Assembly (NCBI GenBank): GCA_020724805.1
Contig: DYGI01000001.1
Coordinates: 389,152-453,151, forward strand
Direction of reading: 5' to 3'
DNA length: 64,000 nt
Source of the DNA: Candidatus Microgenomatus sp.
GTDB taxonomy: Bacteria; Patescibacteriota; Minisyncoccia; UBA6257; GWB1-50-10
Made by a program: the position numbers and the translations under genes. Every line of letters begins with the position of its first letter. Position 1 is the stretch's first letter. Below the pieces are notes generated by a model that had not been told where the DNA came from, did no database searches, and saw nothing but the letters and a program-made list of their open reading frames with translations. Below are positions 793 to 62,970 of this stretch, piece by piece.

Positions 793-847
793 CCGCGCCG
801 CTTTTTTGTGGTAAAAAAATCCCAGCTCATCACATAGGGAGGTTATT

Positions 848-1270: not shown

Positions 1271-1343
1271 ATGTCTTATGTATGTTGCTGCCCTCGGTGG
1301 TTACCAAAACACCGAGGGTTTTTCTTTGGTAGAATGCTCTGGT

Positions 1344-2360: not shown

Positions 2361-2424
2361 CATCATTGAGGGTAGGGAGTAGAAAAAGAGCGGAACATTC
2401 ACTCACGTCTTCGAGGAGGTATGT

Positions 2425-2817
2425 ATGGACCACGCTGGTCTCATATCGGACATACTCCGCCTTTCCCTCTACGCGCTTTCATTCGGCATGGGTTATATCG
2501 GTGCGGTGGTGGTGGAACGGCGGAAGTATCACGAATTGTTGTTTGCGACGGAATTATCCGTCATGCGGCGACTTGGCCTTATCGCGCTCATCTCGGTAGC
2601 GACGTTCACCTGCCATTTCCTTGGTGTGGCGATCGGGGGCCTCATGGCGTTTCTCTGCAGCGTCGGTCTTCTGGACATGATGGGGGTATCCTATTTTGTC
2701 CGCGAATCCATAGGAATTGGCATCATCTTCATCATCTCGGGAGTCTGCGCATGCTACGGAGCAGGGGATACCATTGCCTCAATGTGGCAGAAATACCGGC
2801 TTCAGAAGGCCTCTTGA
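2425..2817 (+). CDS. small membrane protein (hypothetical)
   Basis: GAGGAGG SD 5 nt upstream; 3-4 predicted TM helices. Confidence 0.5.
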   Translation: MDHAGLISDILRLSLYALSFGMGYIGAVVVERRKYHELLFATELSVMRRLGLIALISVATFTCHFLGVAIGGLMAFLCSVGLLDMMGVSYFVRESIGIGIIFIISGVCACYGAGDTIASMWQKYRLQKAS

Positions 2818-2829
2818 CACGGATTCGCG

Positions 2830-3385
2830 TATGCCTATAATGGGTTTCACCTGCGCTGGGAGTGCTTTCCCCAATCGGCACCCCCTCTCGCAAGGGAGGG
2901 AGTCGGAAAGGGTAGAGCGAGAGCCTACCGCAGAACCGCACCTTTACAAGGTGAATCGCGACCACACGGGGACCGAAAGGTTTTCGTGCGAAGAGATCTC
3001 GGGGGTGACTAGGTTAGCCTCTCGGCGCCCGCACTCCTTAAACTGTGGATGGTACTGAAGAGAGATTCGTCTTCTGATTATCTTCACGCTTCTCTGAACG
3101 TGGTGTTGAGCTACGCTCGGAGGACGGTACGTGCAGGTATCATGCTGACGATAGACCCGAGGGCCTTTGAGCCCCAGTGTCGAAATAGAGGTGAGCCGCA
3201 AGGCCTTCTCTACTCCTTCGGTCCGGTCTGCACAGGGTTCCGCGAGACTCAATCTTGCGAGACTCCGATCTCACTGACGAACGTGCGTGGAAGCTCCATA
3301 AGGGCATCCGCGTACGCCTCATCTAGCTGCCGCTCCTATCTCGGGAAATCCTGGGAGAACGAGCGGCGCTTTTTTATTTCCTATA
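2830..3385 (+). other. long noncoding stretch, candidate structured RNA of unknown class
   Basis: No credible ORF in any frame over about 560 nt. Ends in a stem (ccgctc...gagcgg) plus T-run terminator on the + strand. Contains GC-rich helical segments. Not RNase P (see 62620-62970). Confidence 0.3.
3336..3385 (+). terminator. intrinsic terminator
   Basis: Stem ccgctc / gagcgg followed by cgcttttttatt. Confidence 0.55.
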
Positions 3386-3387
3386 CA

Positions 3388-3425
3388 TTGACATTTTTAG
3401 ATTAATATGATATTTTGTACACACG
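3388..3425 (+). promoter_or_regulatory. putative sigma70-like promoter for the small membrane protein gene
   Basis: TTGACA at 3389, then an AT-rich TATGAT/TATTTT -10 candidate; GGAGG SD before the ATG at 3460. Confidence 0.35.
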
Positions 3426-3459
3426 CAGTTTCACAATCCGGTCATCACGTGGAGGCACT

Positions 3460-3708
3460 ATGGGAAGTTTTCCCGTGTTCATATTCATCGCGGTCTGCGC
3501 AGTCTTCGTGACGGGGATCACTCTCGTCGTACGAAATCAGCTCCGGTGGGAAAGTGAACAAGCGTCCACAGCACCCGAAGAGGTTCGGCAAATGAAGCGC
3601 CGGAACTATCGCATTGTGGTCAGCGTTCTTGCTGGGACCTTCGTGCTGTTCCTCGCGTCGGCGGCGCTCGTATTCACCATTGTGAATCACGCGGCGTCCA
3701 CGCCATAG
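3460..3708 (+). CDS. small membrane protein (hypothetical, 82 aa)
   Basis: GGAGG SD 5 nt before ATG 3460; two hydrophobic helices. Confidence 0.5.
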   Translation: MGSFPVFIFIAVCAVFVTGITLVVRNQLRWESEQASTAPEEVRQMKRRNYRIVVSVLAGTFVLFLASAALVFTIVNHAASTP

Positions 3709-3718
3709 CGAACGCCCC

Positions 3719-3758
3719 ATTCCAATACATCGGAATGGGGCGTTTCACTTTGAGTAGG
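3719..3758. terminator. bidirectional hairpin terminator
   Basis: aacgccccattcc ... ggaatggggcgtt perfect 13-bp stem between convergent genes. Confidence 0.6.
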
Positions 3759-3762
3759 GGAT

Positions 3763-4071
3763 CTAAAGCGCGAGTATGAGGAGCACCGCGAGCGTGATAA
3801 TGAGGAGGAAGCTCACCGTATAAACCGCAAGCGTCACCGCATCGGAACGTTTCCCTTCCATGTACCACGCGACCGGGCGGCCAAAGACCGCAAGTGCGAG
3901 AATCGCGGCCGAAGAAGAGAAGAGGAGCAAGAAGCCCATAGGCGCCACGATATCTCCCGCTTTGCCGGCGAACTGTTCCGCGCCGCTCATAATAGCGGCG
4001 ACAAGCGCCACATAACAGGATGCGATGGCGGCATTCCCGAGCGCGTAGAGCGCTATCTTGTTTTTATTCAT
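3763..4071 (-). CDS. small membrane protein (hypothetical)
   Basis: Three hydrophobic helices. Start at the internal Met (MNKNK); a TATGATATAAT-like -10 lies upstream on the minus strand. Confidence 0.45.
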   Translation of the reverse strand: MNKNKIALYALGNAAIASCYVALVAAIMSGAEQFAGKAGDIVAPMGFLLLFSSSAAILALAVFGRPVAWYMEGKRSDAVTLAVYTVSFLLIITLAVLLILAL

Positions 4072-4104
4072 ATGAAAAATTATATCATACAGGCACTTCA
4101 CCTC

Positions 4105-4246
4105 GCCCTTAATTATAGGCTGAAGGTACTGAGGTTTTACTTCGTCGTTCCTCCTCAGTACCTTCTTCGCTATTTATCCATCAGTGCCATAGGCCCTGAT
4201 GAACGAAGTGAAGAAGGGCTGCGGGGGCTGAACGATGTTCGAACCT
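4105..4246 (+). repeat. island-boundary element copy 1 (13-bp hairpin plus tRNA-Gln 3'-end-like core at 4216-4245)
   Basis: About 100 nt of homology, with indels, to 53260-53400 in inverse orientation. Reverse complement of the core reads GGTTCGAACATCGTTCAGCCCCCGCAGCCC, resembling a tRNA-Gln T-loop and acceptor 3' end. Confidence 0.7.
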
Positions 4247-4252
4247 ACTTTA

Positions 4253-4912
4253 TCACGTCGTTATGGTTCCGAACAGTGATTCTGAAGTCGCGATTTGAGC
4301 GAGAATGCTAGTGTGCAGTTTTTTCACAGCGCTCACTATACGATGATCGCCAACGTATTGTTTAACTTGAGCTCTCACTTTATGGATCAAATCGTTCGCG
4401 ATTCCGAAACGACTCCACATATTCAATTCATCGTCTAGCGTGAGAGTTTCCGGGTTTTTATAAAGATTTGCAATGCACTCATAGTATTCGCGCATAACCG
4501 CTTTAGGTTCACCGTTTGGGGTTTCAATATAGGTGAGTGAATCACGTGCTATTTGCATATCGAAGTTTCTTACGTCCTCGATATCTTGCAGTATCTTTAC
4601 CGCAGTTCTTTTTATCCACATTTCTTCTCCCTGGTCACGCATTCCTTCATCTATACCTGGTATTGTCTCACTGATAGCGCTCGCTTGAACATCATCGTAG
4701 AGAAGATGTGAAAACCATCCCTTGCGAAAATCGCTGGTTCTGAATGAAAGATCTGTTTGGTATCCCTTTGGGTGTGTGGCGAGTCTGTTAATTTTTGTCA
4801 CATATCGGCTATCTGGGTATATTGAGCCGGAAATGTACGCGTCAGCATCTTTGACGGAGAGTAGATCCTTAACATCAAGAGCAAACCTTATATGTGATCC
4901 TTGGAGCGCCAT
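4253..4912 (-). CDS. hypothetical protein (219 aa), island cargo
   Basis: Long ORF in AT-rich DNA; bracketed within 8-9 nt at each end by the direct repeats at 4216-4245 and 4921-4948. No recognisable motif. Confidence 0.5.
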   Translation of the reverse strand: MALQGSHIRFALDVKDLLSVKDADAYISGSIYPDSRYVTKINRLATHPKGYQTDLSFRTSDFRKGWFSHLLYDDVQASAISETIPGIDEGMRDQGEEMWIKRTAVKILQDIEDVRNFDMQIARDSLTYIETPNGEPKAVMREYYECIANLYKNPETLTLDDELNMWSRFGIANDLIHKVRAQVKQYVGDHRIVSAVKKLHTSILAQIATSESLFGTITT

Positions 4913-4920
4913 AAACTTTT

Positions 4921-4948
4921 TGCTGCGGGGCTTAAACGACGTTAGAAC
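4921..4948 (+). repeat. island-boundary element copy 2 (partial, core only)
   Basis: tgctgcggggcttaaacgacgttagaac, about 75% identical to 4216-4245. Its reverse complement ends CCCCGCAGCA, like the tRNA-Gln(CTG) 3' end. Confidence 0.6.
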
Positions 4949-5021
4949 TTATTTCCTTTCGACAAGTACCATTCATTAATAAAAATGGGTTCTACCCAAT
5001 TAGGGACATTGATTCTAATTA

Positions 5022-5528
5022 CTAAAAGACATAAATAACCTTTCCTATAATATCGTCTACCTGTTTAACGCCCAATATCGAATTCTCGTTATCACCTTTT
5101 TGGAACACCTCTCCATCGTTGAGATCAAAGCGTAAGATGGTGTCTGGTTTTATAATGTCCAACTCCGAAGCTGAAGAGTTTGGGAAAAGCGTTTTTTCTC
5201 CATTAACTGTGATAGTTTTATTTTCATCTATCACCACTTGATCGCCGGCGACACCGATAATCCTATGTATCCAGGGATCATAAACTGTTTCCTTCGTTAG
5301 CTTGTTTATAAGTGGCGTACCAAACATTACTATGTCGTTTCGTCTGACATTTGATAATAAGTAATGGATTCTACTTACCATCACGTAGCTTCCCTTATCA
5401 ATGGTTGGTTCCATTGAATCTCCTGCTACGTAGTGTATTGGGAAAAAAATTCTCACAAATAATCCAAGAAGAAAGAGAACCCCAATTACGTAGAAGGTGA
5501 ATCTTTTCCAAGGCTTTTTGGTCTGCAT
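5022..5528 (-). CDS. lepB: signal peptidase I (S26 family)
   Basis: N-terminal TM, catalytic Ser motif GDSMEPT, RIIGVAGD box. Confidence 0.8.
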   Translation of the reverse strand: MQTKKPWKRFTFYVIGVLFLLGLFVRIFFPIHYVAGDSMEPTIDKGSYVMVSRIHYLLSNVRRNDIVMFGTPLINKLTKETVYDPWIHRIIGVAGDQVVIDENKTITVNGEKTLFPNSSASELDIIKPDTILRFDLNDGEVFQKGDNENSILGVKQVDDIIGKVIYVF

Positions 5529-5549
5529 TGCTAGTTCTGCTTTATTTGA

Positions 5550-5819
5550 TTATAGGAAAAAATACGAAACGAAAGCCGAAAAGCTTGCCAGTAAATAACC
5601 AACTCCAGCAATGAAATTGATTGCCCGATTATCTTGGTTGAGAGTATCGAGGTATGCGTTAAAATCATTGATAAATTCTTCAATACCAAGTGGCACACCA
5701 TTAAAGGTTTTTACCCCTCCTTTATTTGAAAAGGGAGCGATTTTTTGAAAACTTCTCCAGAAATGATAAATCGCCAAAGCAAGAAATGAAAATGTAAATA
5801 TTATCCAAATGTACTTCAT
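5550..5819 (-). CDS. small membrane protein (hypothetical)
   Basis: Internal start MKYIWIIF; two TM helices. Confidence 0.4.
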   Translation of the reverse strand: MKYIWIIFTFSFLALAIYHFWRSFQKIAPFSNKGGVKTFNGVPLGIEEFINDFNAYLDTLNQDNRAINFIAGVGYLLASFSAFVSYFFL

Positions 5820-5972
5820 GGCTGGGAGGCTTGGGAGCGAACAACGCTCGTATTCACTCGCGTTCACAAAACCCTCGGTTTTGTGTCCACTATCGTTCAA
5901 TCCGACACGGAAGGGACACAAAAGGTTTCCCTTCCGACCCATCCCTCACTTAAATCGTCAGATTTAAGTCCA

Positions 5973-6002
5973 GATTCATGGCTTCAAAGGCCGCTGTCCT
6001 AT
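5973..6002. repeat. tRNA-Gln fragment (anticodon-arm region) duplicate
   Basis: agattcatggcttcaaaggccgctgtcctat matches tRNA positions 6068-6100 with one mismatch. Confidence 0.7.
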
Positions 6003-6046
6003 AGACAAGGGAGTGAGGAAATGGAAAGCGTCACTCCTGCGCACCG

Positions 6047-6117
6047 CTGGGAGGCTTGGGATCGAACCAAGATTCACGGCTTCAAAGGCCGCTGTCCTAC
6101 CATTAGACGACCTCCCA
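6047..6117 (-). tRNA. tRNA-Gln (anticodon TTG)
   Basis: Cloverleaf: acceptor TGGGAGG/CCTCCCA, D-arm GTCT/GGAC, anticodon loop CTTTGAA, T-arm CTTGG-TTCGATC-CCAAG, discriminator G. U1-A72 is typical of bacterial tRNA-Gln. Confidence 0.85.
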
Positions 6118-6193
6118 GCGGTGCGCACGAATGTGTAATTGTCGAGGAACGTTTTCTATTTCCGAGCGAGCGCCGTATGTATGGCGAAACCAT

Positions 6194-6212
6194 ACCATTA
6201 GACGACCTCCCA
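6194..6212. repeat. tRNA-Gln 5'-end fragment duplicate
   Basis: accattagacgacctccca identical to tRNA positions 6099-6117. Confidence 0.7.
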
Positions 6213-6237
6213 ATGCCATTTCTTTATACTGTAACTG

Positions 6238-6861
6238 ATGGAATTCGCAACTTGGCTTATGGTGGAACTTCCGGTGATAGGGGAATGGGTGCTCGCGCTC
6301 GCTGCGGGAGCCATCTATTTTTCTTTTTCTCGTCGTGCTCCCGCGCATAACGTAACGCGTATGCGGCAAGTATTCATCGCGGCCGTCGCGGTGATTTTCG
6401 GGGTCGCCGCGCTTTCCACGTTCCTGCAGTATTCGGTTTGGAAAGCCGACCAATTCTCACAAAACTTCCTTCCCCCGCATCAGTCGATTCTGTATTTTGC
6501 AAAGTATGCCGGCACGCACTTCTGGCTCACCCCGGTCCTTTCGCTCGTCATTGCCGGCGCGTTTTTTTTGTTCCTCCACGTGCTCGCGCGAAAAAACGAA
6601 AGGTTCTTCGAAGAGGGTGAAATTGAGCTGGGCGCTCTCGCCGCTTTGCTTGCAGGATGGCCTGGGTTCGTGATTTTTCTTCCCGCTGTCTTTCTTGCAG
6701 TCGTCGTCATTTCCGGGGCAAAACTGATGCTGCAAAAAAGCGCTTACACCACGCTAGGACTTCCGCTTCTTGTCGGACTTTTTGTGGCGTTGGTGTGGGG
6801 AGACGCCACCCTCCGTCTCGTGGGACTTGGGCTTCTCGCGGTTATTCCCGGCGCGCGCTAA
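6238..6861 (+). CDS. polytopic membrane protein, possibly divergent prepilin-peptidase-like (A24)
   Basis: 6-7 TM helices. EIELGALAALLAGWPG resembles the GxGDVKLLAALGAWLG block of PilD-type peptidases, but the Asp is replaced, so the call is weak. Confidence 0.3.
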   Translation: MEFATWLMVELPVIGEWVLALAAGAIYFSFSRRAPAHNVTRMRQVFIAAVAVIFGVAALSTFLQYSVWKADQFSQNFLPPHQSILYFAKYAGTHFWLTPVLSLVIAGAFFLFLHVLARKNERFFEEGEIELGALAALLAGWPGFVIFLPAVFLAVVVISGAKLMLQKSAYTTLGLPLLVGLFVALVWGDATLRLVGLGLLAVIPGAR

Positions 6862-32263: not shown

Positions 32264-33223
32264 ATGGCCGAAATGCACCGTTATGCAAGGTTTGTCCGAG
32301 CGCTTGTAACTACGGCATTCGTGCTTATACCCCTCGCAATTTTCGCGGGCATTTTTGTTTTTCAAAATGGGCAGCTCGCAAAAGAACGCGCACTCATAGA
32401 AGCCGAACGTCTTTCAAATGTCATCGCAGCGCAACAAATGCAACAATTCACGAATATTCGCAACCTCCTTATTAGTATCGCAAGCTACGCGGAAGTGGAG
32501 AATCGCGATGCGGAAGGTTGCAACCGCACGCTCGCTCTTCTTTTGGAACACGTTAATACTCCGACCTACACCTATCACAACCTTGGCATCGCGGATTCAA
32601 ACGGTCAGGTGTTCTGCAGCGCACTTCCCGCGGAACGTTCTGTAAACACGGCTGATCGGTATTATTTTCAGCGCGCGATGCAGACGCGCAGCTTTTCCAT
32701 CGGCGAGTATCAGATTGGGCGCATTACCGGAAAAGAATCGATAAATTTTGGCTACCCCGTACTTGATGAAAAGGGTGCGGCGACGTTTGTTATCTTTGCC
32801 GCAGAAAGTCTTGATGCTATTCACGAGCGCGCGAACCGCGTGCGCGGGGAGGGATATCCTATACTCATCATCACTGACCGAAACGGCACAATTTTGGTCC
32901 ACCCCGAATACCGGGAAGCGGTTGGAACACATTTCACCGAACATGAACGCATGCACAATGCTCCTTCCGGATCATTCTCGGCTATAGGTCCGGACGGCAC
33001 CGCCTATCTTTTTGGTTTCGCCACCCCCACCGTCGCCACTCAAGGCGACCACATCCATTTCATCATCGGAATCCCCCTTGTTCGTATTTCCGCATATCTC
33101 GATGATCAAATTGCCCGCTATGCTGAGTACTTTTTCGGGGCGATAGCGCTCTTCGGTGCGCTCGGTTGGTTTGTGAGTGATCGGTTGGTGCGGCGACTCC
33201 TCGCGCATAAAACTGTCAGTTAA
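32264..33223 (+). CDS. Cache-type extracytoplasmic sensor domain membrane protein without output domain
   Basis: N- and C-terminal TM helices flank a periplasmic domain of about 280 aa with a double PAS/Cache-like pattern. No kinase, MCP or GGDEF follows. Confidence 0.45.
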   Translation: MAEMHRYARFVRALVTTAFVLIPLAIFAGIFVFQNGQLAKERALIEAERLSNVIAAQQMQQFTNIRNLLISIASYAEVENRDAEGCNRTLALLLEHVNTPTYTYHNLGIADSNGQVFCSALPAERSVNTADRYYFQRAMQTRSFSIGEYQIGRITGKESINFGYPVLDEKGAATFVIFAAESLDAIHERANRVRGEGYPILIITDRNGTILVHPEYREAVGTHFTEHERMHNAPSGSFSAIGPDGTAYLFGFATPTVATQGDHIHFIIGIPLVRISAYLDDQIARYAEYFFGAIALFGALGWFVSDRLVRRLLAHKTVS

Positions 33224-34946
33224 GATCTTTTTTGATCTCTTCGAGCTCTTCTTCTACCGCAGTTTCGGCGGCATCCACGTCGTGTTTGAGATGAATGAGG
33301 ATTTTTTCTTCCTCTATCGTAAGTGCGCGTTTAGTTTTCGCACTTTCAAGAAGACGAAGGTGTTTCTTCATGGAAGCGCGTAATTTTTCGAATTCTTTTT
33401 TCACATCCCGTTCCGCGTCTTTAATGTCGCGCTGCACTTTTTTCTTGAATCCAAACATATTCCGCCACGCGAACCAGCAGATGCTCGCGAGGAACACGAG
33501 GAGTGCAATAATGGAAACAATAACCGTGAGAAGATTGATGGCGTAAGAGCCAATGCGGATGATGCTCGGACTTTCCACCGCGACGGTATAACGTGCACTC
33601 GGTGCGGTTTTGGCACCACGCGCATCCACCGCGTCTGCCCACAGTTCGTATACTCCCGCCGGAATTTCTCTATCGCCCGCGACAACGTAGTTCCCTTGCG
33701 CATCACTTGTGCCGTTGTAGAAGCGCGGCGTAATGCCCTCTCTCTCCAACCATACCGTCACGGTCGCATTCGGCACTGTGCGTCCGCGCACCGTAAGAAT
33801 ACCTCCAGGCTCGAGCGTTGAAGGATATGTGGTAATAACCGGCGCGGGGAGCTGTTGAATCACCACTTCCGAGAGCGCCGCTTGGTAATTCCCGGCACGA
33901 TCGAATGCTTGTACCAAAAGCGTTTGGGTCCCTCCTACAGTCGAAGGAAGTGTGTAGGGATTGTGCTCAACCTGTTCCGAAGAAACCACCACAAAATCCT
34001 GGTCGCCTATTTTTACCTTGTAGTATTCGATGCCAGATTCAGTGTCACGCGTATTGAACAGCACCACAGGGTTCGGGTTTGTGGAATCTTCTCCTTCTGC
34101 GAGCCTTATTTCGAATCGTTCAGGTGGTGTGGTATCCACTTGAAAACGGAAATGCGCCACTGCTCCCCAACCATTCGCGTTTCGGAATTGTGCGTGCAGG
34201 TAGTATGCACCATCGGAAACATCTTCTATTTTTTTCTCCGATATTGGTGGGTCATAGAGTACAGTTGGCGTCGTAAGTGGCGAAGTGTTGTAGAGAAGAC
34301 GTACTGCTGTCACGCCGCTCGGAACCTCCCACGTAAACTGTGGAGTCTTATTTGCATACCAGCGATCAGGATTGGGATGAGTCGGCGAAACGATACGGGG
34401 TGCGAGTGGCGCACCGGGCGGCGTGGGACTTGTGACATCTCCCGCGGTCGTACCGCCGATAGTGTATCCACCAGTGCCGAGCGAGGCGAGAATGTTCGTC
34501 CCCTGCCCATCGTTTGCGAGCACGCTCCCGCTCGTGAAACGAAGGTTTGCGACGCCATTTGCTTTTGTGCGGAACACAACGGTAATTACAGTACCATTCG
34601 CCCCGGCGTATCCGGGATTCAACACCACTCCTTCGAAGCTCACAGTCCCGGCTTCATTCGAAAACGACGGCTCCTGCACCCAGAGATTTACGATGGATCC
34701 AGTCTTCGATATAGACACAACCTCAAGGAGCGAGACGGGGAAAGATACCGTTCCGGACACCGCATTCATCGCCTGATCTGATGAATCAACCGCCACTCGC
34801 ACCGAAAACGTTTGACCCGCGGTGAACCCCCCGCTCCCCGGCACAAGCGTAAGCGTCGCCGCCTCCGCGGTTGGAAGTAGAATTATGGGCGAAACGAGCG
34901 CGAGCGCAATCCCTAATCCGCGCGCGAGCGATATTTTCTTTGCCAT
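33216..34946 (-). CDS. cohesin-like domain surface protein, C-terminal TM anchor and charged tail
   Basis: Signal peptide. The segment TLTLVPGSGG...VNAVSGTVSFPVSLLEVVSI...VFRTKANG... matches a cohesin beta-sandwich pattern. Ig-like repeats follow, then a TM and KK/EE-rich tail. Confidence 0.55.
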   Translation of the reverse strand: MAKKISLARGLGIALALVSPIILLPTAEAATLTLVPGSGGFTAGQTFSVRVAVDSSDQAMNAVSGTVSFPVSLLEVVSISKTGSIVNLWVQEPSFSNEAGTVSFEGVVLNPGYAGANGTVITVVFRTKANGVANLRFTSGSVLANDGQGTNILASLGTGGYTIGGTTAGDVTSPTPPGAPLAPRIVSPTHPNPDRWYANKTPQFTWEVPSGVTAVRLLYNTSPLTTPTVLYDPPISEKKIEDVSDGAYYLHAQFRNANGWGAVAHFRFQVDTTPPERFEIRLAEGEDSTNPNPVVLFNTRDTESGIEYYKVKIGDQDFVVVSSEQVEHNPYTLPSTVGGTQTLLVQAFDRAGNYQAALSEVVIQQLPAPVITTYPSTLEPGGILTVRGRTVPNATVTVWLEREGITPRFYNGTSDAQGNYVVAGDREIPAGVYELWADAVDARGAKTAPSARYTVAVESPSIIRIGSYAINLLTVIVSIIALLVFLASICWFAWRNMFGFKKKVQRDIKDAERDVKKEFEKLRASMKKHLRLLESAKTKRALTIEEEKILIHLKHDVDAAETAVEEELEEIKKDLN

Positions 34947-35829: not shown

Positions 35830-36845
35830 TTATCCCGTCCAGTAATATGCGAGAATACTGAAGTCAATGAGATCAATTTTCCGATCGGTGTTCAGATCGA
35901 CGTGCGTCGGTGGGGCGACACGTCGGTACCAATAGGCCATGACCGAAAAATCAACAAGGTTCACCCTCCGGTCGGCGTTTATATCACCCTTCGCCGAGGC
36001 CTCCCCGGTCTTCGCGAGCACATTCTTGGTGCCCACCGTAAAACCAGCCGCCCGACTGTAGCTCGAGAGGAGTTGATTTAAAAGGGTAGCTTTTGATTTT
36101 GCACTATGGGAACCATAGTCAAGCTCGCTCGTATCGAAATAATAGAGATAGGCGCCACCGGTATCCGCTTTTGTCTTCACCACTATTTCCTCTTCGGAAC
36201 CGACGGTGATGAGAATATCCGCGGCGGGTGCGCTTTGGCCGAATATAGTGATGGTGTCCCCACGTTTTACCTCTTCCTTATCCACCGCAATGGTCGGCGC
36301 GATAAAAATACCGCTTACATTCGTGGTGGCTCCCGCAGTGATGGAAACTGGGAAGGTGTGCAAACTAGAACGGTTGCCGTTTTTGTCCTCGCTGTAGAGA
36401 GAAAAAATATAATTTCCCGATGAGAGCCCTGAAACAGAAAGTGAGAATGAGCCATCGCTTCCTGCCGCGGCACTCGATACCACCGCCGCGTCTTTAAGAA
36501 GAGTGACTGCCCTTCCCGGATACGCGCGCCCGGAAAGCGTCACGCTCGCCGCCGGAGCAATATATCCTCCTCCCCCCCCTCCTCCCCCCCCCCCCCCCCC
36601 CCTCCGCCAGGCGGAGGCGTGGGAGGCGGTGGATCGGTTTCATCGTCATCCGCATACGAAGAACATCCGGGGTCGTTCGGATAATCTATTTCCCCGTCGC
36701 TGTCGTTATCAACACTATCACTGCACTCTGTCACCAGCACAGTCACCGATACGTTCGACGTTTCGGCGCGCACCGGAAACGGTGCATAAACAAGTGAAAA
36801 CCCGAAAAGGAGAATGAGGATTGTCGCGAACGCTCCTCTCTTCAT
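35830..36845 (-). pseudogene. dockerin-containing secreted protein split by a frameshift in a poly-G/poly-C homopolymer
   Basis: 36540-36845 encodes a signal peptide, an acidic region and a Pro/Gly linker. 35830-36543 (other frame, GTG pseudo-start) encodes an Ig-like domain plus two dockerin Ca-binding repeats (GDINADRRVNLVDFSVMAYW, VDLNTDRKIDLIDFSILAYYW). The frames join only across the C tract. Confidence 0.7.
36572..36602. repeat. homopolymeric tract (8 C, then cct, then 19 C)
   Basis: Directly counted; encodes poly-Gly on the minus strand; it is the site of the frame disruption. Confidence 0.9.
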
Positions 36846-37717
36846 TACCCTCGTGAGTATTTCTTCTTGATGAAAATGGCGATACCGCCGACCACCACCA
36901 ACCCCGCTGCGATGGTCGTTATTTCAAAGAAACCAAACGAACGTGCTACGACATTGAATACAGTCTTGAGCTCTCGTACTGACTGTCCGTTACGGTACAG
37001 CTTTGCGTCAGCCCAGTATTCCCCTATACCAAGCTTGATGTCTATCGGAAACTTGAGGGTAATGGTCTTCGTCTCGAACGCCGGCACTTCGGGAATATCC
37101 TCCGTCTGCGAGAACGCGAGCCTGATATCACCGAATTTATCGTAAAGATCGAAGGTAGCTCGCTCAGGCGCAATCGGGACATTTCCGGTATTCTCCAGTA
37201 CAAATTCTATCGCGGGAGGACTACCTTCTTCGATGTCGAGTATCTCCACTTTTTTTATCTGGAAATCGGCCACCACACCTTCTCCTACCGTAAGATTGAT
37301 ATCCACCCGCGCGCCCACAGAAATGGTCACCTGTTCTCCCGCTTCACGCGTAGGAATCGTGTTGATACGAAGATATCCCTGATAAATGCCGAAATCCGCG
37401 TCTTGGGGAACCTGCACGGTGACTACAATCGGAAATTGTTGAATGCCGGCCGGAATGGTGAATTCATTCCCTTTGTCTATCACAAACCACTTACTTATCT
37501 TCTCCGGCACATCAAGCGTTGCCTTGATATCCAAGTCTTCTTTTGGCTGGCCCTGCACCAAATAAATGGTCGTGTCAAACCTCGCTCCCGGCACTAACCG
37601 GTCGCTCCGAATGAAAGGCGGCGAGATACCGAATGCCGAAACGGAAAGGGGTACACCTATGGCCGCGATGGCAAAAAAAATAAGGGAGGAAATCGTTTGC
37701 CAAACTCTCGATTTCAT
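36845..37717 (-). CDS. cell-surface protein with signal peptide and C-terminal TM anchor (DUF916-like architecture)
   Basis: Signal peptide, beta-rich ectodomain, TM plus KKKYSRG tail. Confidence 0.45.
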   Translation of the reverse strand: MKSRVWQTISSLIFFAIAAIGVPLSVSAFGISPPFIRSDRLVPGARFDTTIYLVQGQPKEDLDIKATLDVPEKISKWFVIDKGNEFTIPAGIQQFPIVVTVQVPQDADFGIYQGYLRINTIPTREAGEQVTISVGARVDINLTVGEGVVADFQIKKVEILDIEEGSPPAIEFVLENTGNVPIAPERATFDLYDKFGDIRLAFSQTEDIPEVPAFETKTITLKFPIDIKLGIGEYWADAKLYRNGQSVRELKTVFNVVARSFGFFEITTIAAGLVVVGGIAIFIKKKYSRG

Positions 37718-37750: not shown

Positions 37751-38701
37751 CTAGTCTCCGAAGATAGCGGTGAACGTGTTCGAACCGGTGTAACTTCCAG
37801 TCGGTTGGCCGCCAGGAACCGCGATACCCCAGTAGGTCGTGCTTGCCGTCTGGCTGGTGGAAGTAGTGGTCCTCCCGACATTGATGTTCCGCGCAGTCGG
37901 CGACGTGGAAAGGGTGTGGGTGAGCGAGGCGTATGCAGCAGAAGACGTACCGTACTTTTGTTGGCTCGCGAGAAGTGTGTCTCCGCCCGATGCCATGTTG
38001 GTACCGGAAAATTCAATATCAATGTTGTAATTTCCGGTGTTCGTTGTGGTTGCTACTTGGTTTGTGGAACCGGTGTCGGTGTTGGCGGGAACCGCTCCAT
38101 AGTTGATACTTGCAGTGACATCCAAAGCGTAGAGCGAGTTCAGTTCTACGGTTGCGGAAGATGTGGCGTTGCCGGTCGCAGCCGATTCATCGGTTGCGAG
38201 GACATAAGCGGCCCACCATTCGCTAGGAAACGTGGAACTCGCATCGGTCGCATCCGCAAAATACCACACCTTGATGGTACCGGATGCCGTTCCCGACGTA
38301 TCCGCACCGCCGGTGCAGGTGCCGCCTGCGTCCGCCATCGTAATGTTCCGATAACAATTCAATGCGTTATTACTGCATGAAGAGGTTCCTGACACGCCGG
38401 TGCGGTAAAGAACCGCGGAGAGAGTGCCGCTCGTAAACACGTCGCCGCAACCGTTCGCGTCGGTGATGTCCGCGGTAATGGTAATGGTGGTAGAGGTATT
38501 CTCGGTAAGTACGATGGGGTTGGGTGTTATTGCAACGTTCGCCACGGTCGGCGCGGCATTCCCTACGTCCACCGCAGTCGAAGCGGCATCGGCAAGAACC
38601 TGGGGTGATTCAAGAACGGCAAGCGAGATGCCAAGAAAAGCCCCCACGATGAGGGACGCTAGAATATAAGACCGCACAACAGAACCGAAGGCACTTTTCA
38701 T
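37751..38701 (-). CDS. secreted Thr/Ser-rich protein, paralog of the C-terminal ~300 aa of the giant protein
   Basis: Shares ...ENTSTTI...LNSLYAL..NTDTG...NTGN..ID... and the C-terminal PxGSYTGSNTF(T/E)AI(F/A)GD with 38761-43698. Confidence 0.5.
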   Translation of the reverse strand: MKSAFGSVVRSYILASLIVGAFLGISLAVLESPQVLADAASTAVDVGNAAPTVANVAITPNPIVLTENTSTTITITADITDANGCGDVFTSGTLSAVLYRTGVSGTSSCSNNALNCYRNITMADAGGTCTGGADTSGTASGTIKVWYFADATDASSTFPSEWWAAYVLATDESAATGNATSSATVELNSLYALDVTASINYGAVPANTDTGSTNQVATTTNTGNYNIDIEFSGTNMASGGDTLLASQQKYGTSSAAYASLTHTLSTSPTARNINVGRTTTSTSQTASTTYWGIAVPGGQPTGSYTGSNTFTAIFGD

Positions 38702-38760: not shown

Positions 38761-41700
38761 CTAGTCCGCAATGGCCTCGAACGTGTTGCTACCAGTATAA
38801 CTTCCCGGTATCTTCCCGCTCGGTACGAAAAGTCCCCAGAATACATCGTCGGTCACTGGTGTTTCCGAAGTCGGTTTGGCAAGATCTATCTCGAGCCGCG
38901 TGAGCGCGCCCGAAAGTGTGGCGCACACCGTGCAAGAAGAATAAGTGAAGGTGGAGGTCGCATATTTTTGATTGTCTGCGGTGATGGTAAATCCGCCGTT
39001 CGCCATGCTTGTACCGGAAAGATTTACGTCGATGGCGGCATTCCCCGTATTCGTCACGGTAGTAGTTTGCGTAGCCGCACCAGTGTCGGTATTGGGATTG
39101 AGAGATCCATAGCTTATCGCGCCGGTAACGTTCAGCGCATAGAGCGTGTTAAGCTCCACGCCACTCGCGGTCGACGAGGCGCCGGTGTCGCCTATCACAT
39201 CCCCCACCGTCATGTGACCTTGCCAGTTTTGAGCGCTGAAGGAACCTACGTCGGTCGGGTCTGCGAAATACTGGATTTTCGCGGAACACGTAAAGTCGCA
39301 GCTGTTCCCGGAACAGTTTGATTTTGCGCAACTCGTGGACGCTATACGATAGCAACTATTCTGGTCCGCGGTACATGACGCTCCTACGCCCGATCGGTAG
39401 ATAACCGAGGTGGCATACGCGATGTCAGCATTGCCGTCCACGTCGGTTGCGGTGCCGGTGAGATCGATAGTGGTGGAGGTATTCTCGATGAGCGTAATGG
39501 AGCTCCCGCCGTTCAGCGTAATTGCCGAAGCGGTGGGCGCCGCATTGGACGCCTCAACGACCGCGATGGAAGGATACCCACACACCGCGTCAGAACAATC
39601 ATTCGAACCGTCGGCATCTTGCTCGCGGAACACAGGAGTGAGTTGGTCGTTATCGTACGCACGGAAATAGTATGTAAGGCCGGACGTCGCATTTTCTGCT
39701 TTCAAAGGATAGTCATATTCCACGAGCGCGAGTGCGTTGTGATCCATGTTCGCGCCCGCCGCCGCATCTTTGTCGGAAAGATAAGTACCGCTCTGCGTGC
39801 TTCCCGTAAGACGCTGTGCGCCGATTGCAGTATTGTCGCTACAATTCGCACACGTTTCTCCCGCCGTCGCATAACGCCAAATCGCGCCGCTTTCAGCGGT
39901 ATCGCCCACATCGGTCCACGTAGAAGTGGCGATATCAGGATTATCGGTGGTCCACTGGAGTTTTTTTCTAGCGTCGGTCTGAGCGATGCCTGCAAGTTCG
40001 GCGAATTGGAAACGTAATCGCACAAAGTCGTCGAGCGAAACGTTGGGAGTCGCATTCTCCGCCACACCGAGCGCGTCGGACGAGTTATCGGGATCGTTCT
40101 CGGCGATGTCGCCATAAAAGCGCCAATTTCGTGACCACGGCGAATAGGGTTTTGCCACGACCCAAAATGGTCGCCCCTCGCCGACGGTGCCATTTGAAAT
40201 AGTAAGCGGTGCGAGCGCATCTTCGCCCGCCGAGCTGCATCCGGTCGTATCCCACCCGGTAAAGCCCCCACCGCCCCACGCGCCGCCGTTACAGTCCGAG
40301 TCGCTATCGCGACCGGTCGCAAAAATTTCATTCGTATTTGGATGCGGGGTAAGTTGTATTGCGAGCGCATCGTCGCCCATATTTGTGGCGATGTCGGTGA
40401 TTGCGGAAAATCCCGTTCCTTCTATCCAGGTCTGCCACGCACTCGCATCGCTCGCAGAACTCAGCGAGCCAATATAGAAAGCTTGCACGTTGGTATTGAG
40501 CGATTCCATACCTACATTCGCGTGCTGCGCCCACACCGGGTCCGATGATGCCCACTGGTTCCCGATGGTCATGGTTGGTGAAGCGCCGCCGGTCCAGATG
40601 TATGGTTGAATGCGACAGTTGGTGCCGGTTGAACAGTTATTGCCCACCGTCGTCGCGGAGTTGCCAATGATGGCGATATGGTCCTTTCCGCTCACCGGCG
40701 CCGCTTTTGCCGCCATCCAATGACCGATACTTGAGAGCGCAATCGCGGGAAGTGCGGTGCCGGTGGAATCCCAGGAGAGAGTCGAACGCGTCCAGCGCTT
40801 ATAGCGGTAGGGTGTAGTGGTTGCGGTCGTACCTTCTGACCATACGATAAGCGCATTACCGGTAGTTTCTTCCCATGCGCCATCAAAATTTTGCGTCTGA
40901 AAAGTGGAAGCGGTCGCAGTGATTGAGGTGGTTGCCGTCCATGAGGAACCGTTCCAAATACCCGCGAAGATATCGGAGTTTGCATCCGAAGTGATGACGA
41001 GTACTTCGTCCGAGCGGCTCCCTTTCAGCATCTCACCGCGCGGAATGAGGCGGACCCACCGGATGGCGCCGCTCCCGCCAGTGGACATAGTGCTCGGCGC
41101 GGAGCTTGTGGCTGGTGACCAGCTCGTGCCGTCCCATGTGCGATAGGCAAGGCGTCCCGCCGTCGTGCTCGCGAATGCGACTATTGCCTCGCCGGAAAGC
41201 TGCTCGTACGCAATATCGAACGCACCCCAGCACGAACCGAATGTAGTCGCATCACAGGTTTGTGCGGTGGTGACCGCCGCGTTATCAAATTGGAGCGCCG
41301 CATCTCCTGCAGCATCTTGCCCTCCGATTATTTTTGATATTGCAACCGCGCCGTCTGCTTTAATGACACCCGCAATGATCTCGTCCCGGGTCGGCGCATG
41401 TGCGCCTTTTACGAACCCGACCGCGGAAGCGGTTCCTACCGGTCCTAAAAGTTCACCGCCAGTGGTGTTCGAGGCGCCGGTCGCCCACAAAAGGCGCCCT
41501 TGGTTGTTGGTGGCACCATAAAATGTCCGTGCTGAAAGTGATGCGACCGCATCCGCAGCAATCTGCCATCGACGCGTTTCACGAAAATCTCCCACCCGGA
41601 GCGGTCCTAAAAGGTAGAACTGTGGACTTATCTCGGGAGCTAGATAATCGTATGAGAGAGTAACCTTCTCCCCTTCCGCAAGAGTGAGCACCCACCGGAT

Positions 41701-43698
41701 TATGCGTTCGCCGCCACGATCTACCACAACGCCTCCATGCGAAATGTGTTTTACCTGGAACGAGCTTGGCACTCGCTCTTCCACGTCTCCTGAGAACGCT
41801 TCCGTGGCACCCACGGTAATGTGCACCGGATACGGTACGGGAGGATAAATGCGCGTCGCCGATACGCGCGCGACATCGAAAGGCACCGACTCGCGGACTT
41901 CGAAAGAGTCATAGACGGTATGGGCGCCGTTCGCGGTCGTGGCAGTGAGCTTTGTTTTATAGACGCCTGTCTCTTCCACCGCGTATGAAGTCTCATAATC
42001 CGGCTTTTCCGTATAGGCTTTTATGCGGCACTCAGGATTCACCGAAATGTTTCCACCGGAGGTTGTCAGCACTCTCACCTCTCCCGCAGGCGTAGTGATG
42101 CTCAACTCGACATTCGCATCGCAGACCATGTTCCCGCCATCATCCAGAACCGCGATACCTATCAAAGAGGTTTCCCCCGGCAGATAGACGGACTTGTCAG
42201 GGTTCATTGCGAGAACTCCCCACGTGAATTCATTTTCGGTGTAATACACCACTCCATTGCGCCACACCCACACCCGGAGAGAATATTTCCCAGGCACAAA
42301 CTGGTCGGAAGGTTGGGGCACGTTCACGCGCAATCGATTGTTCGCAAGTAAAACTTGTGGACGTATGTCAGCTTCCTCGTCTCCGCGACTGAACACTTTT
42401 GCCACTACGGGATTCGCCGCCGTAGGGAGCGGCGGCGTTTCCGTTTCGGTTTCCTGCGCGTGAACGAATTTTCCGATACCAAGCCAACGCATGATACGGG
42501 TAGCAAGGGAAACTTGAGGGGGAGGCGGACGGAAAGAGGATGGAGAAATTTCGTTTTCTTGAACGGGGGTGAGCGCGTCAAGGTCCAGTTCAAAACTTGG
42601 CGCTTCATCCGCGGTGAACGAGGGAACCTCTCCTTCTCTTAGTATCACGTCGATTGCGGCGGCTGGAACCACAGGAGTTGCGCTCTCCGATGCCGACACT
42701 GGATTCTCCGTTTGGTTTGCATCGCTCGTAATGAGGGGAGGTATTTCGTAATGAACCTCGAGAAGCATTCCGTCCAAAAGCACCTTGGGAAGCATAGGAA
42801 GTGCCGCAGAGATTCCCTCGATGCCAATCTGAACGCGGGCGAGGTCCTCCCACGCGGTGAGAGGCAACGGAACGGTAAGGTGCGGGACCATTTCTTCGGA
42901 AACGTCTGCGAGTGCGAACCAATTAGTGCCGTCTAAGCTATAACTCACACGTAAAAATGCCGGTGAAGGTGGAGGAAGCGAAGCGGTAATCTCTTCGGAA
43001 AGAACACTTTCCTCAGTTGATGAAGAAACGGCATTTTCCTGGGTGATGGGCGTTGTTGTTTCTTCTGCGACGGTCGAAGTGGGAGCATCAGAGGAGATGG
43101 GTGATTCCGGTTCGACCGCGATTGGCTCAGGTTCCGCAACTGTCGGTGCCGACTCAGGTTTGGGAGAAACTTCTTCTTGCGCATACACTATGTCAAAAAT
43201 GGGAAAACGAAATGCTCCACTCGATGTGGATGAAGCAACTTCGTTCTCCGAGGTTGTCGCCTCTTCCATGAGCGGCACCTCGGAAAGTGCGGCTTCAGTG
43301 CTCCATACGAGCGTAAGCCCCACATTTGTGATGGCTCCCTCCCCTTTAAATTCCTCCGGAATGAAATTTCCACAGAATATCTGGCTTGTGGCACCGGTGA
43401 ACGTCGCGGAGACATTAGTGGTGAGTGGTACGTCCGTACCGAAGGTCTCGGGAATTCCCTGCGCGAACGAAGGATTATCCCACGTGCCAAGACATGTCGT
43501 TGCATAAAAATCGGAGATTTCCGCGCGAGTAAAGAGAGTTTGCGTGCCAAAAGTGATAAGAATTACCAACACAACACCAACGCCCGCAATAAACGGGAAC
43601 CGTCGATGGACCGGGGGTCGCAGGTTCACCACTTCATGTTTTCCACGATGAACCTCAACGACACCTCTCCGCCCCGCATTTCGCCATGAGGTGTGCAT
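38761..43698 (-). CDS. giant (1645 aa) N-anchored extracellular protein
   Basis: Single N-terminal TM, Glu/Pro/Thr-rich linker, multiple beta-rich domains, C-terminal module shared with 37751-38701. Confidence 0.6.
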   Translation of the reverse strand: MHTSWRNAGRRGVVEVHRGKHEVVNLRPPVHRRFPFIAGVGVVLVILITFGTQTLFTRAEISDFYATTCLGTWDNPSFAQGIPETFGTDVPLTTNVSATFTGATSQIFCGNFIPEEFKGEGAITNVGLTLVWSTEAALSEVPLMEEATTSENEVASSTSSGAFRFPIFDIVYAQEEVSPKPESAPTVAEPEPIAVEPESPISSDAPTSTVAEETTTPITQENAVSSSTEESVLSEEITASLPPPSPAFLRVSYSLDGTNWFALADVSEEMVPHLTVPLPLTAWEDLARVQIGIEGISAALPMLPKVLLDGMLLEVHYEIPPLITSDANQTENPVSASESATPVVPAAAIDVILREGEVPSFTADEAPSFELDLDALTPVQENEISPSSFRPPPPQVSLATRIMRWLGIGKFVHAQETETETPPLPTAANPVVAKVFSRGDEEADIRPQVLLANNRLRVNVPQPSDQFVPGKYSLRVWVWRNGVVYYTENEFTWGVLAMNPDKSVYLPGETSLIGIAVLDDGGNMVCDANVELSITTPAGEVRVLTTSGGNISVNPECRIKAYTEKPDYETSYAVEETGVYKTKLTATTANGAHTVYDSFEVRESVPFDVARVSATRIYPPVPYPVHITVGATEAFSGDVEERVPSSFQVKHISHGGVVVDRGGERIIRWVLTLAEGEKVTLSYDYLAPEISPQFYLLGPLRVGDFRETRRWQIAADAVASLSARTFYGATNNQGRLLWATGASNTTGGELLGPVGTASAVGFVKGAHAPTRDEIIAGVIKADGAVAISKIIGGQDAAGDAALQFDNAAVTTAQTCDATTFGSCWGAFDIAYEQLSGEAIVAFASTTAGRLAYRTWDGTSWSPATSSAPSTMSTGGSGAIRWVRLIPRGEMLKGSRSDEVLVITSDANSDIFAGIWNGSSWTATTSITATASTFQTQNFDGAWEETTGNALIVWSEGTTATTTPYRYKRWTRSTLSWDSTGTALPAIALSSIGHWMAAKAAPVSGKDHIAIIGNSATTVGNNCSTGTNCRIQPYIWTGGASPTMTIGNQWASSDPVWAQHANVGMESLNTNVQAFYIGSLSSASDASAWQTWIEGTGFSAITDIATNMGDDALAIQLTPHPNTNEIFATGRDSDSDCNGGAWGGGGFTGWDTTGCSSAGEDALAPLTISNGTVGEGRPFWVVAKPYSPWSRNWRFYGDIAENDPDNSSDALGVAENATPNVSLDDFVRLRFQFAELAGIAQTDARKKLQWTTDNPDIATSTWTDVGDTAESGAIWRYATAGETCANCSDNTAIGAQRLTGSTQSGTYLSDKDAAAGANMDHNALALVEYDYPLKAENATSGLTYYFRAYDNDQLTPVFREQDADGSNDCSDAVCGYPSIAVVEASNAAPTASAITLNGGSSITLIENTSTTIDLTGTATDVDGNADIAYATSVIYRSGVGASCTADQNSCYRIASTSCAKSNCSGNSCDFTCSAKIQYFADPTDVGSFSAQNWQGHMTVGDVIGDTGASSTASGVELNTLYALNVTGAISYGSLNPNTDTGAATQTTTVTNTGNAAIDVNLSGTSMANGGFTITADNQKYATSTFTYSSCTVCATLSGALTRLEIDLAKPTSETPVTDDVFWGLFVPSGKIPGSYTGSNTFEAIAD

Positions 43699-43762: not shown

Positions 43763-44710
43763 TTATTGGGAAGAGATGTACTGATACGCTTTCTCTGCCA
43801 CTAAATGCATGAATTCTTTTACTTTTTCTTCTTCACCTTCGGTTCCCTCTCCCCCCACGGCTACCGATATGAGAAAAGGGCGCCCTTCCACATAAACAAT
43901 CCCGGAATCGAGGTAGGCGTGACGCTCGCGATCGATACCGAACTTGTGCGGAAAAGGAACCTCACGAGGAATTCCTCCCGCAAGAAATTCTCGGTAATTC
44001 GCCGCCGCGAGCATGGAAAGAATAAGCTCGGAGTTCTCACGCTTCAAAAAACTTGAAGTGTAGAGAGATCGAAAGAGCCGTGAATATTCTTTCGCACTTA
44101 CGAGTCCGTCGATGGTGAAAAGCTCATCGAGGCCAAGCTCTCCAATGACCGCCTCCAACTCTCGGCTATCGATTCGGCGAAGAAAAGCGCGGTAGGCGGT
44201 ATTATCGGAATCCTTGAGCATGGCCTTTAAAAGCTCTTCTACGGTAAAAACCGTTCCCGCCGGCACGCCGGCGAGTCTTCCATAACGCGAATCGCGGTCA
44301 TCTTCTTGGATCGAGAATTTATCGGTGAGTTCCCATTCTCCCCGCTCGATCTTTTTCGCTACCGCAAGCGCCATCGGCACCTTCGGGAGAGATGCGGGCC
44401 AGACGCGGACGTCTTGGTTAATAGAAATGTTTGCACCGCTGTTCAGAAATTCAAAGTAGAGAGAAACCTGGCGAGGGTGTTCCCACCGCACGAGATCTCG
44501 CAGTTCTTCGCGTAATGGCTGGAGGTTCACAATAAAGTTCTCTTGCGCGATGAAGTTGCGGGCCGGGTCAATGAGCGGGTATTCTTCGAGCGCATCATTA
44601 ATGGAAAGAGAACTAGTCGCCCATCCTATTGCGACGCCCGCGAACGCCAACCCTAAGAACAAAGTTGCCACCTTCCAACGATTTATGGATAGGAATGACA
44701 TAATATCCAA
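43763..44710 (-). CDS. class A beta-lactamase-related serine hydrolase
   Basis: N-terminal TM/signal, SDN loop (KDSDNTA), candidate SxxK (SLPK); the KTG box is degenerate (KFG). Confidence 0.45.
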   Translation of the reverse strand: MDIMSFLSINRWKVATLFLGLAFAGVAIGWATSSLSINDALEEYPLIDPARNFIAQENFIVNLQPLREELRDLVRWEHPRQVSLYFEFLNSGANISINQDVRVWPASLPKVPMALAVAKKIERGEWELTDKFSIQEDDRDSRYGRLAGVPAGTVFTVEELLKAMLKDSDNTAYRAFLRRIDSRELEAVIGELGLDELFTIDGLVSAKEYSRLFRSLYTSSFLKRENSELILSMLAAANYREFLAGGIPREVPFPHKFGIDRERHAYLDSGIVYVEGRPFLISVAVGGEGTEGEEEKVKEFMHLVAEKAYQYISSQ

Positions 44711-49053: not shown

Positions 49054-49124
49054 TGCGGGATCGTCTAATGGTAGGACGTCTGGCTCTGAACCAGAAAATT
49101 GGGGTTCGATTCCCTGTCCCGCAG
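49054..49124 (+). tRNA. tRNA-Gln (anticodon CTG)
   Basis: Acceptor TGCGGGA/TCCCGCA, D-arm GTCT/GGAC, anticodon loop CTCTGAA, T-loop TTCGATT, discriminator G. Confidence 0.8.
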
Positions 49125-62481: not shown

Positions 62482-62552
62482 AGCCAGTGAGAGGAATCGA
62501 ACCTCCGTCTTCGCTTTACGAAAGCGTTGCTCTGCCATTGAGCTACACTGGC
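62482..62552 (-). tRNA. tRNA-Thr (anticodon CGT)
   Basis: Acceptor GCCAGTG/CACTGGC, D-arm GCTC/GAGC, anticodon loop TTCGTAA, T-arm GGAGG-TTCGATT-CCTCT, discriminator T. Confidence 0.8.
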
Positions 62553-62596: not shown

Positions 62597-62620
62597 CGCC
62601 CCGATTTGCATCGGGGCGGG
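62597..62620 (-). terminator. hairpin 3' of RNase P RNA
   Basis: ccgccccgat ttgc atcggggcgg perfect 10-bp stem. Confidence 0.5.
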
Positions 62621-62970
62621 AGAAGTATGACATAAGCCGGGTTCTGTCTACGCGACAATTCATCTGGGACCGCGATTGCTCGCGGACTCGAGCGGCACTT
62701 CCTCCGGTTTCCCTCGGGACACGGCCTTGCACTCGGGTAAGGATTTAGCCGTTTCATCTCCGCGTTTCTATCCCTATCGCGGATATGGACCTTTTGGCCT
62801 GGGATCAGGTCCTCCTTCGCCTTTCGACTCGGGACGTTTCTGCTCGCACCTCTATCCTCACGGACGACGGGTGTTACCCGCTACCTTGCTCCTCCATTGC
62901 TGAAGGGAGTGCCCGGACTTTCCTCACTCACGACTTAACGTCGGAGCGCTGTCGCTTGTCATACTTCTAC
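62620..62970 (-). ncRNA. rnpB: RNase P RNA (bacterial rnpB)
   Basis: On the minus strand the P4 strands read GAGGAAAGTCCGGGCACTCCC and ACAGAACCCGGCTTA. P1 pairs GAAGTATGACA with TGTCATACTTC at the two ends. Confidence 0.85.

Follow-up and report, generated by a model that had tools for sequence, protein, structure and literature searches.

Within the 64-kb stretch of DNA analysed here (the window), the gene of a dockerin protein is split into two open reading frames at a glycine-coding tract that includes a run of 19 G. Both ORFs lie on the minus strand, their frames are offset by one base, and the coordinates that an initial annotation of this DNA gave for the two halves proved exact. The operon to which they belong is tightly packed, with stop and start codons that overlap or nearly abut. 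The features at the locus, with homopolymers named as on the minus strand, are:

36845–37717, minus strand: upstream operon gene, 290 aa, whose stop codon shares bases with the ATG of the dockerin gene (TAATG)
36540–36845, minus strand: N-half ORF, 101 aa, with Sec-type signal peptide, acidic Cys motif CSDSVDNDSDGEIDYPNDPGCSS, Pro-rich stretch and the start of the poly-Gly linker
36565–36608, minus strand: whole G/A-only Gly-coding stretch, GGCGGA-G19-AGGA-G8-AGGAGGA, unresolvable in the other assemblies of the strain
36584–36602, minus strand: G19 homopolymer (C19 on the plus strand) in the poly-Gly linker, place of the apparent one-base frame defect
36572–36579, minus strand: G8 homopolymer (C8 on the plus strand), part of a G8-AGGA 12-nt unit of the Gly-coding tract
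35830–36543, minus strand: C-half ORF, 237 aa, nominal GTG start, with two Ig-like beta domains and a C-terminal dockerin
36349–36546, minus strand: Big_6 bacterial Ig-like domain, residues 101–166 of the joined protein (35 bits, cutoff 27.6)
35848–35991, minus strand: dockerin type I module, two DxNxDxxxxxxD loops, each followed by a helix
34913–35827, minus strand: downstream gene, 304 aa, with signal peptide, cohesin-fold domain, FN3-like domain and C-terminal transmembrane helix (AF2 and Foldseek)
33216–34946, minus strand: second downstream gene, 576 aa as called, with N-terminal cohesin-like domain, Big_13 Ig-like domain, and a hydrophobic segment with charged tail

The same operon carries a gene for a 316-aa protein (37751–38701, minus strand) and, upstream of it, one for a 1645-aa protein (38761–43698, minus strand). 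The former is paralogous to the C-terminal ~265 residues of the latter (43% identity, E 2e-42), and neither protein has a significant Pfam or NCBIfam match. An Rfam search of the window returned a bacterial class A RNase P RNA (62618–62967, minus strand, 120 bits) and three tRNAs (62482–62552, 6047–6117 and 49054–49124), and nothing beyond these.

Gene product and protein family

When the two halves are joined, the protein has about 1,900–2,000 significant homologues of one-piece architecture, and those with source names are nearly all labelled as Patescibacteria/CPR MAGs. All 18 homologues that we retrieved are single proteins with their parts in the same order: signal peptide, small Cys-rich module, Pro-rich stretch, Gly run, the motif YxAP..V.FxGRAYP, two Ig-like domains and dockerin. 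The Cys-rich module often reads CSDGxDNDxDGKIDYPxDPGCSS, and a run of 7–13 Gly is present in 17 of the 18, P0090 having only GGG there. As its architecture is that of these homologues, the window gene is, as far as its sequence tells, a normal member of the family, divided into two halves precisely at the linker. Exact look-ups of the products P0001 and P0121 in the contig index gave no record.

The dockerin assignment rests on several observations. Dockerin_1 (PF00404) scores 21.5 bits in the joined protein, below the cutoff of 22.9 (E 2.6e-4), and most close homologues have precomputed PF00404 matches, many of them being named dockerin type I repeat-containing protein. The translation contains the tandem Ca-binding loops DINADRRVNLVD and DLNTDRKIDLID with their helices, and these are located at the C-terminus of a protein with an N-terminal signal peptide. 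An AF2 model of the joined protein is of low confidence (pLDDT 57), and a fold search from it was dropped for this reason. Its secondary structure, to be read with the same low pLDDT in mind, consists of a signal helix, a disordered linker, two beta domains and two terminal helices (297–306 and 326–337, in the dockerin) and agrees with the domain calls. Thus, profile matches and homologue architecture support the anatomy of signal peptide, linker, Ig-like part and dockerin that had been proposed from the letters alone.

Cohesin-fold proteins encoded downstream

The 304-aa protein has no Pfam or NCBIfam match, and its cohesin fold is detected by neither. It was recognised from an AF2 model (pLDDT 84.5; transmembrane helix at residues 275–303), for which the best 50 Foldseek matches in the PDB are all cohesin modules or cohesin-containing constructs and complexes, led by the cohesin-FN3 construct 2w1n (E 5.6e-12). 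The N-terminal domain of the 576-aa protein is paralogous to this cohesin domain (31% identity, E 6e-16). On the basis of the model, the 304-aa protein is likely the docking partner of the dockerin protein. The gene order dockerin-cohesin-cohesin is conserved in three related contigs (L087–L089), and therefore the set is a compact CPR cohesin-dockerin cassette.

Position of the frame break

On the minus strand the tract reads CCGCCTGGCGGA-G19-AGGA-G8-AGGAGGA-TATATTGCTCC, with TAT directly after AGGAGGA, and it is flanked by the unique sequences CCTCCGCC on one side and ATATATTGC on the other. The N-half ORF runs past the linker into an out-of-frame tail, EEGGEEDILLRRRA, and its end reads PPPGGGGGGGGEEGGEEDILLRRRA. 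The frame of the 237-aa ORF stays open upstream across the entire G tract, as GGGGGGGGGGGGYIAPAASVTLSGRAYP, and its open part begins only at about 36639. Comparison with homologues establishes the upstream frame up to where the G run begins, and the downstream frame from TAT-ATT (YI) at 36564 onward, so the shift must sit within the G-rich positions 36565–36602. The initial annotation had stated that the halves can only be joined across C8-CCT-C19; the placement holds, and only the spacer needs correction, being TCCT (36580–36583, plus strand), a trivial slip. From the sequence, the one-base shift could equally sit in the G8 run. We found both halves to be free of further lesions, with every family motif retained.

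In silico variation of the long run gave a single ORF of 337–339 aa at 17, 20 or 23 G and no joined ORF at 18, 19, 21 or 22 G, the out-of-frame lengths yielding only stubs of 101–117 aa. The G20 version encodes a linker of 15 Gly. At the end of the N-half, its TGA overlaps the GTG that opens the 237-aa ORF (GTGA, 36540–36543) and so mimics a translational-coupling junction. This overlap is probably coincidental, because its GTG is the conserved Val of the V.F.GRAYP motif.

A homopolymer scan found C19 and C8 to be the only G/C homopolymers longer than 7 nt in the window, the remaining homopolymers being of at most 8 nt and, except for one G7, A/T runs. We estimate the chance expectation of a 19-nt G/C run at 53% GC as ~1e-6. 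None of the other homopolymers in the window that were examined for split genes is associated with one; they sit in intact ORFs, and the peptide deformylase gene beside a T8 run is complete. The suggestion to look for similar tracts elsewhere in the genome thus yielded no second long homopolymer within these 64 kb of a ~571-kb genome.

The tract in other assemblies of the strain

Exact look-ups of proteins encoded nearby yielded further contigs of the strain. These match the window in the flanks, with 0 mismatches over 6.7 and 6.1 kb (bases 1–6700 and 564740–570864 of the JGI contig), and the second NCBI scaffold differs from the window by 1 SNP in 12.9 kb. All five other contig sets fail at the tract, and each version differs from every other; overlapping read sets may underlie the assemblies, so that this disagreement may reflect assembler behaviour and not independent biological measurements. 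On the two sides of the tract they read as follows:

Window, NCBI 464,812-bp contig: left GGCGGA-G19; right AGGA-G8-AGGAGG-ATAT; gap-free span
JGI Ga0246236_1000004, 570,864 bp: left ends GGCGGA-G8-AG; right begins G20-A-G8-AGGA-G8-AGGAGG-ATAT
Logan SRR5011275: left contig ends GGCGGA-G8-AGGA-G8; other contig starts G18-AGGA-G8-AGGAGG-ATAT
JGI 3300029892 and Logan SRR13164376: left contigs stop 20–29 nt short of the tract; right side not recovered
GCA_020725245.1 (DYFJ01000002.1, 82.9 kb): left CCTCCGCC-ATCATCTGGTCG-N10; right G27-T-G17-C-AGGAGG-ATAT

The only gap-free traversal of the tract is that of the window, and the exact number of bases in it finds support in no other assembly. The length of the G run is 19 in the window and at least 18, 20 and 27 in other assemblies. 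The left-side contigs place G8-AGGA after GGCGGA, where the window has G19, and JGI Ga0246236_1000004 has an A where the window and the right contig of Logan SRR5011275 have G. The latter two agree on at least 18 G followed by AGGA-G8. GCA_020725245.1 carries junk sequence ahead of its N10 gap, and across the gap it gives split ORFs of 111 and 237 aa. No single sequence is compatible with all contigs of the strain. From their sequences, we infer that the two Logan contigs are minimally reconciled by GGCGGA-G8-AGGA-G(18 or more)-AGGA-G8-AGGAGGA, which would be longer than the window version. We also considered that the true sequence is simply GGCGGA-G8-AGGA-G8-AGGAGGA, an in-frame version with 11 Gly that fits the Logan left contig and the JGI ends (the JGI start from the A onward). 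As the sole sequence it was rejected, since the window and Logan have at least 18 G before AGGA-G8 and JGI has 20 G before the A. Poly-G tails of two-colour chemistry are an unlikely origin of the runs, since correct unique sequence follows them in the 3′ direction on the G strand (by reasoning only).

As its two ends abut the tract from opposite sides, JGI Ga0246236_1000004 is apparently a complete circular genome of ~0.57 Mb that is open only at the tract. In the JGI metagenome_contigs collection, neither a pattern of both flanks separated by N{20,50} nor the right flank by itself gave any match (0 each), the collection apparently being without these samples. A protein search with the N-terminal 87 aa for other N-half or full-length versions from the strain recovered only the 101-aa ORF of the window itself. 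The single SNP of GCA_020725245.1 is a C-to-G change at window position 44192 (scaffold ~510) that turns TAC into TAG and splits a Beta-lactamase2-family gene (43763–44710, minus strand; 312 aa in the other assemblies) into 169 and 131 aa.

The linker in related genomes

Three syntenic orthologues (L087, L088 and L089) were recovered via homologues of the cohesin gene. The dockerin gene is intact in 3/3 of them, with 344–348 aa, and the Ig-dockerin part of L089 is 75% identical to that of the window. The linker has 13, 14 or 15 Gly in these three, its codons are a mixture of GGC, GGA, GGT and GGG, and the longest G run measures 5 nt; the 15 Gly that would follow from G20 in the window fall within this range.

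A wider survey covered 80 loci from GTDB species representatives, 77 with the GRAYP landmark. The contigs of 67 cover the linker, and in 67/67 the frame runs upstream without a break for 63 codons or more. Across the 77 loci the Gly runs comprise 3–24 residues, encoded by GGC (248), GGA (224), GGT (209) and GGG (70), and the longest G run in a linker is 8, usually at most 5. In total, 405 kb of these loci contain seven G/C runs of at least 8 nt, the longest being 11. We considered that long G runs might be hidden at the edges of GTDB contigs that start in the linker and rejected this, as those contigs begin in mixed GGN sequence. Since relatives use mixed Gly codons and GGG makes up only ~21% of the Gly codons in the long ORFs of the window, the pure-G encoding of the linker is, on codon usage, best read as a derived peculiarity of the window strain and not as a family trait.

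Some further observations were made on these loci. Two contigs from unrelated CPR MAGs, L039 and L067, begin inside a mixed-codon Gly linker of a family gene, which indicates that non-homopolymeric GGN repeats are recurrent assembly breakpoints too. Where the window gene has the CSDSVDNDSDGEIDYPNDPGCSS module (36603–36845), the syntenic orthologues have a different Cys-rich module at the N-terminus (CGNGTAEWNEACDG...GYTGGTLSC...; L087 2937–3200, L088 and L089). Both module types occur across the family and are always joined at the poly-Gly linker, which suggests from sequence comparison that modules may be shuffled at this point. In a Kaiserbacteria MAG (JACRFL010000013.1; L065, ~200–210), an in-frame G11 run occurs in the signal-peptide coding region (LLMLTGGGAEVAYA) of a gene located near the dockerin-family gene of that genome, possibly another slippage-prone tract in a CPR secreted protein.

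Discussion

We favour, at about even probability, the reading that the frame break is an assembly or base-calling artefact in a real, unusually long G-pure tract and that the organism has an intact one-piece gene. The locus would then be an unremarkable gene from a very large family of secreted proteins in Patescibacteria/CPR, laid out as Sec signal peptide, small acidic Cys-rich module, Pro/Gly linker, two Ig-like domains and C-terminal dockerin, and its secreted Ig-dockerin product would presumably be tethered to the cell surface through the two membrane-anchored cohesin-fold proteins whose genes follow directly downstream. The poly-Gly linker of this strain would be written almost only with GGG and GGA, giving G8-AGGA units and a G run of at least 18–20 nt. 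Short-read sequencing and assembly would fail on this G-pure stretch, and the G19 of the window would be one arbitrary and unreliable count, a single base below the in-frame G20. A length set in effect at random would miss the frame in two of three cases. That the defect is confined to a homopolymer between otherwise intact halves, and that assemblies break or disagree at exactly this site, is what such an artefact produces. The strain assemblies never agree on the tract, and thus the one-base break is not a dependable property of the genome; we infer that the predominant true tract length is in frame. The warning of the initial annotation that tracts of this kind are classic miscalled positions is directly supported by assemblies that break, gap or differ at the tract, with flanks otherwise identical and intact genes in relatives. 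Still, a run of about 19 is not pure invention, since at least 18 G are read in both the window and a Logan contig. Replication slippage must also occur in so long a G run, and a purely technical explanation is therefore probably incomplete. In Campylobacter jejuni, an increase from G8 to G11 raises mutability 10-fold (PMC3401435).

This leads to the main alternative, a doubtful yet substantial possibility, that the tract is a genuine slipped-strand tract of the contingency type, that the population is a mixture of ON cells (displayed Ig-dockerin) and OFF cells (101-aa secreted stub) and that the window caught an OFF length. The tract is a simple sequence of slippage length in a coding region, G19 being about twice as long as classic poly-G contingency tracts, and its place in a surface-protein gene, after the signal peptide and ahead of the functional domains, is the classic one. 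The reading frame depends on the tract length, so that changes made in silico switch the product. The homopolymer is specific to the strain, orthologues and the 77 family loci having mixed codons and G runs of at most 8; with GGG at ~21%, this indicates a derived expansion of the slippage type. Apart from one distant SNP, the tract is the only point at which the assemblies of this genome differ, and a G/A branch would lie exactly at the ends of the Logan contigs. However, all versions other than the window are contig ends or gap edges, where errors accumulate, including the one preceded by junk. Known phase-variable genomes carry many such tracts, and neither a second long homopolymer (in the 64 kb examined of the ~571-kb genome) nor a recurrence in relatives was found. 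A run of 19 G or more is above the usual tuned length, with C. jejuni tracts of more than about 11 nt being biased toward deletion (PMC3401435). Moreover, the linker tolerates 3-nt changes, so slippage can arise neutrally. From the proposal that this is a contingency locus, the capacity to slip and to set the frame stands, and the expectation of further and conserved tracts does not within the 64 kb and the relatives covered here. A more far-reaching version, which we regard as rather unlikely, is that the tract is a true hypermutable switch toggling the display of a dockerin-tethered Ig-like protein on membrane-anchored cohesins, recently arisen by conversion of a mixed-codon poly-Gly linker into a pure G run and the first contingency-type locus to be described in CPR/Patescibacteria. 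The purpose of such a switch would perhaps be varied host-cell attachment or phage evasion. Our literature search retrieved neither a description of phase variation by homopolymers in Patescibacteria nor any paper that mentions the sample accessions.

It is improbable that the gene is a recently inactivated pseudogene with a true, fixed frameshift in this strain. The sole gap-free sequence across the tract is out of frame, and the second NCBI scaffold is split as well, though across its N-gap. Yet both halves are free of other lesions and keep the family motifs, the operon is tightly coupled with intact putative cohesin partners, and the orthologues are intact. In addition, the called length cannot be relied on, and at least 19 G in a row would let a one-base defect revert at high frequency, which makes "fixed" hard to sustain. 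We give very little credence to programmed recoding, by which the DNA would be stably out of frame and the full-length protein would be produced when RNA polymerase slips, or the ribosome shifts by -1, on the G run. The frame would be restored by either a single extra G or the -1 shift, and a run of 19 identical bases exceeds the length of the RNA-DNA hybrid, making heterogeneity of transcript length mechanistically plausible. Recoding sites are as a rule conserved among orthologues, however, and L087–L089 and the 67 GTDB loci have plain single ORFs without a homopolymer.

At present, the practical consequence is mainly a caution. The split surface-protein gene of the deposited MAG sits on a tract that no assembly resolves, so neither a pseudogene annotation nor an entry as gene loss would be appropriate for it. 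Nowhere but at this tract does an otherwise closed 571-kb genome fail to circularise. If the length heterogeneity were real, slipped-strand phase variation would extend to episymbiotic CPR bacteria with reduced genomes, and the switch would be tied to a cohesin-dockerin surface cassette, the first such report for CPR as far as the literature searched shows.

Comparison with known systems

The locus resembles homopolymer errors and contig breaks in short-read metagenome assemblies in that the defect lies exactly in a homopolymer, the assemblies disagree and the surroundings are identical and intact. In contrast to a simple one-off miscall of a short run, the tract itself seems real, with at least 18–27 G in four assemblies. 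Poly-G/C contingency loci include the pilC and lgt genes of Neisseria. With such loci, as described for C. jejuni (PMC3401435), the gene shares a G/C homopolymer in the 5′ part of a surface-protein gene whose length sets the frame. It differs from them in that contingency tracts mostly measure 8–13 nt, are found in numerous genes of the same genome and reappear in related strains, whereas here one tract of at least 19 nt was found in 64 kb and none in the orthologues. The cassette is comparable to non-cellulosomal cohesin-dockerin pairs, such as the C. perfringens GH84C cohesin-FN3 (2w1n) and the cohesin of Archaeoglobus fulgidus (2xdh), by its duplicated Ca-loop/helix dockerin and the adjacent cohesin and FN3-like fold. 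Unlike in those pairs, the cargo is not an enzyme but two Ig-like domains with a small Cys-rich module, and the cohesins, for which binding is predicted only, are anchored by a C-terminal transmembrane helix and encoded in a CPR genome of ~0.57 Mb.
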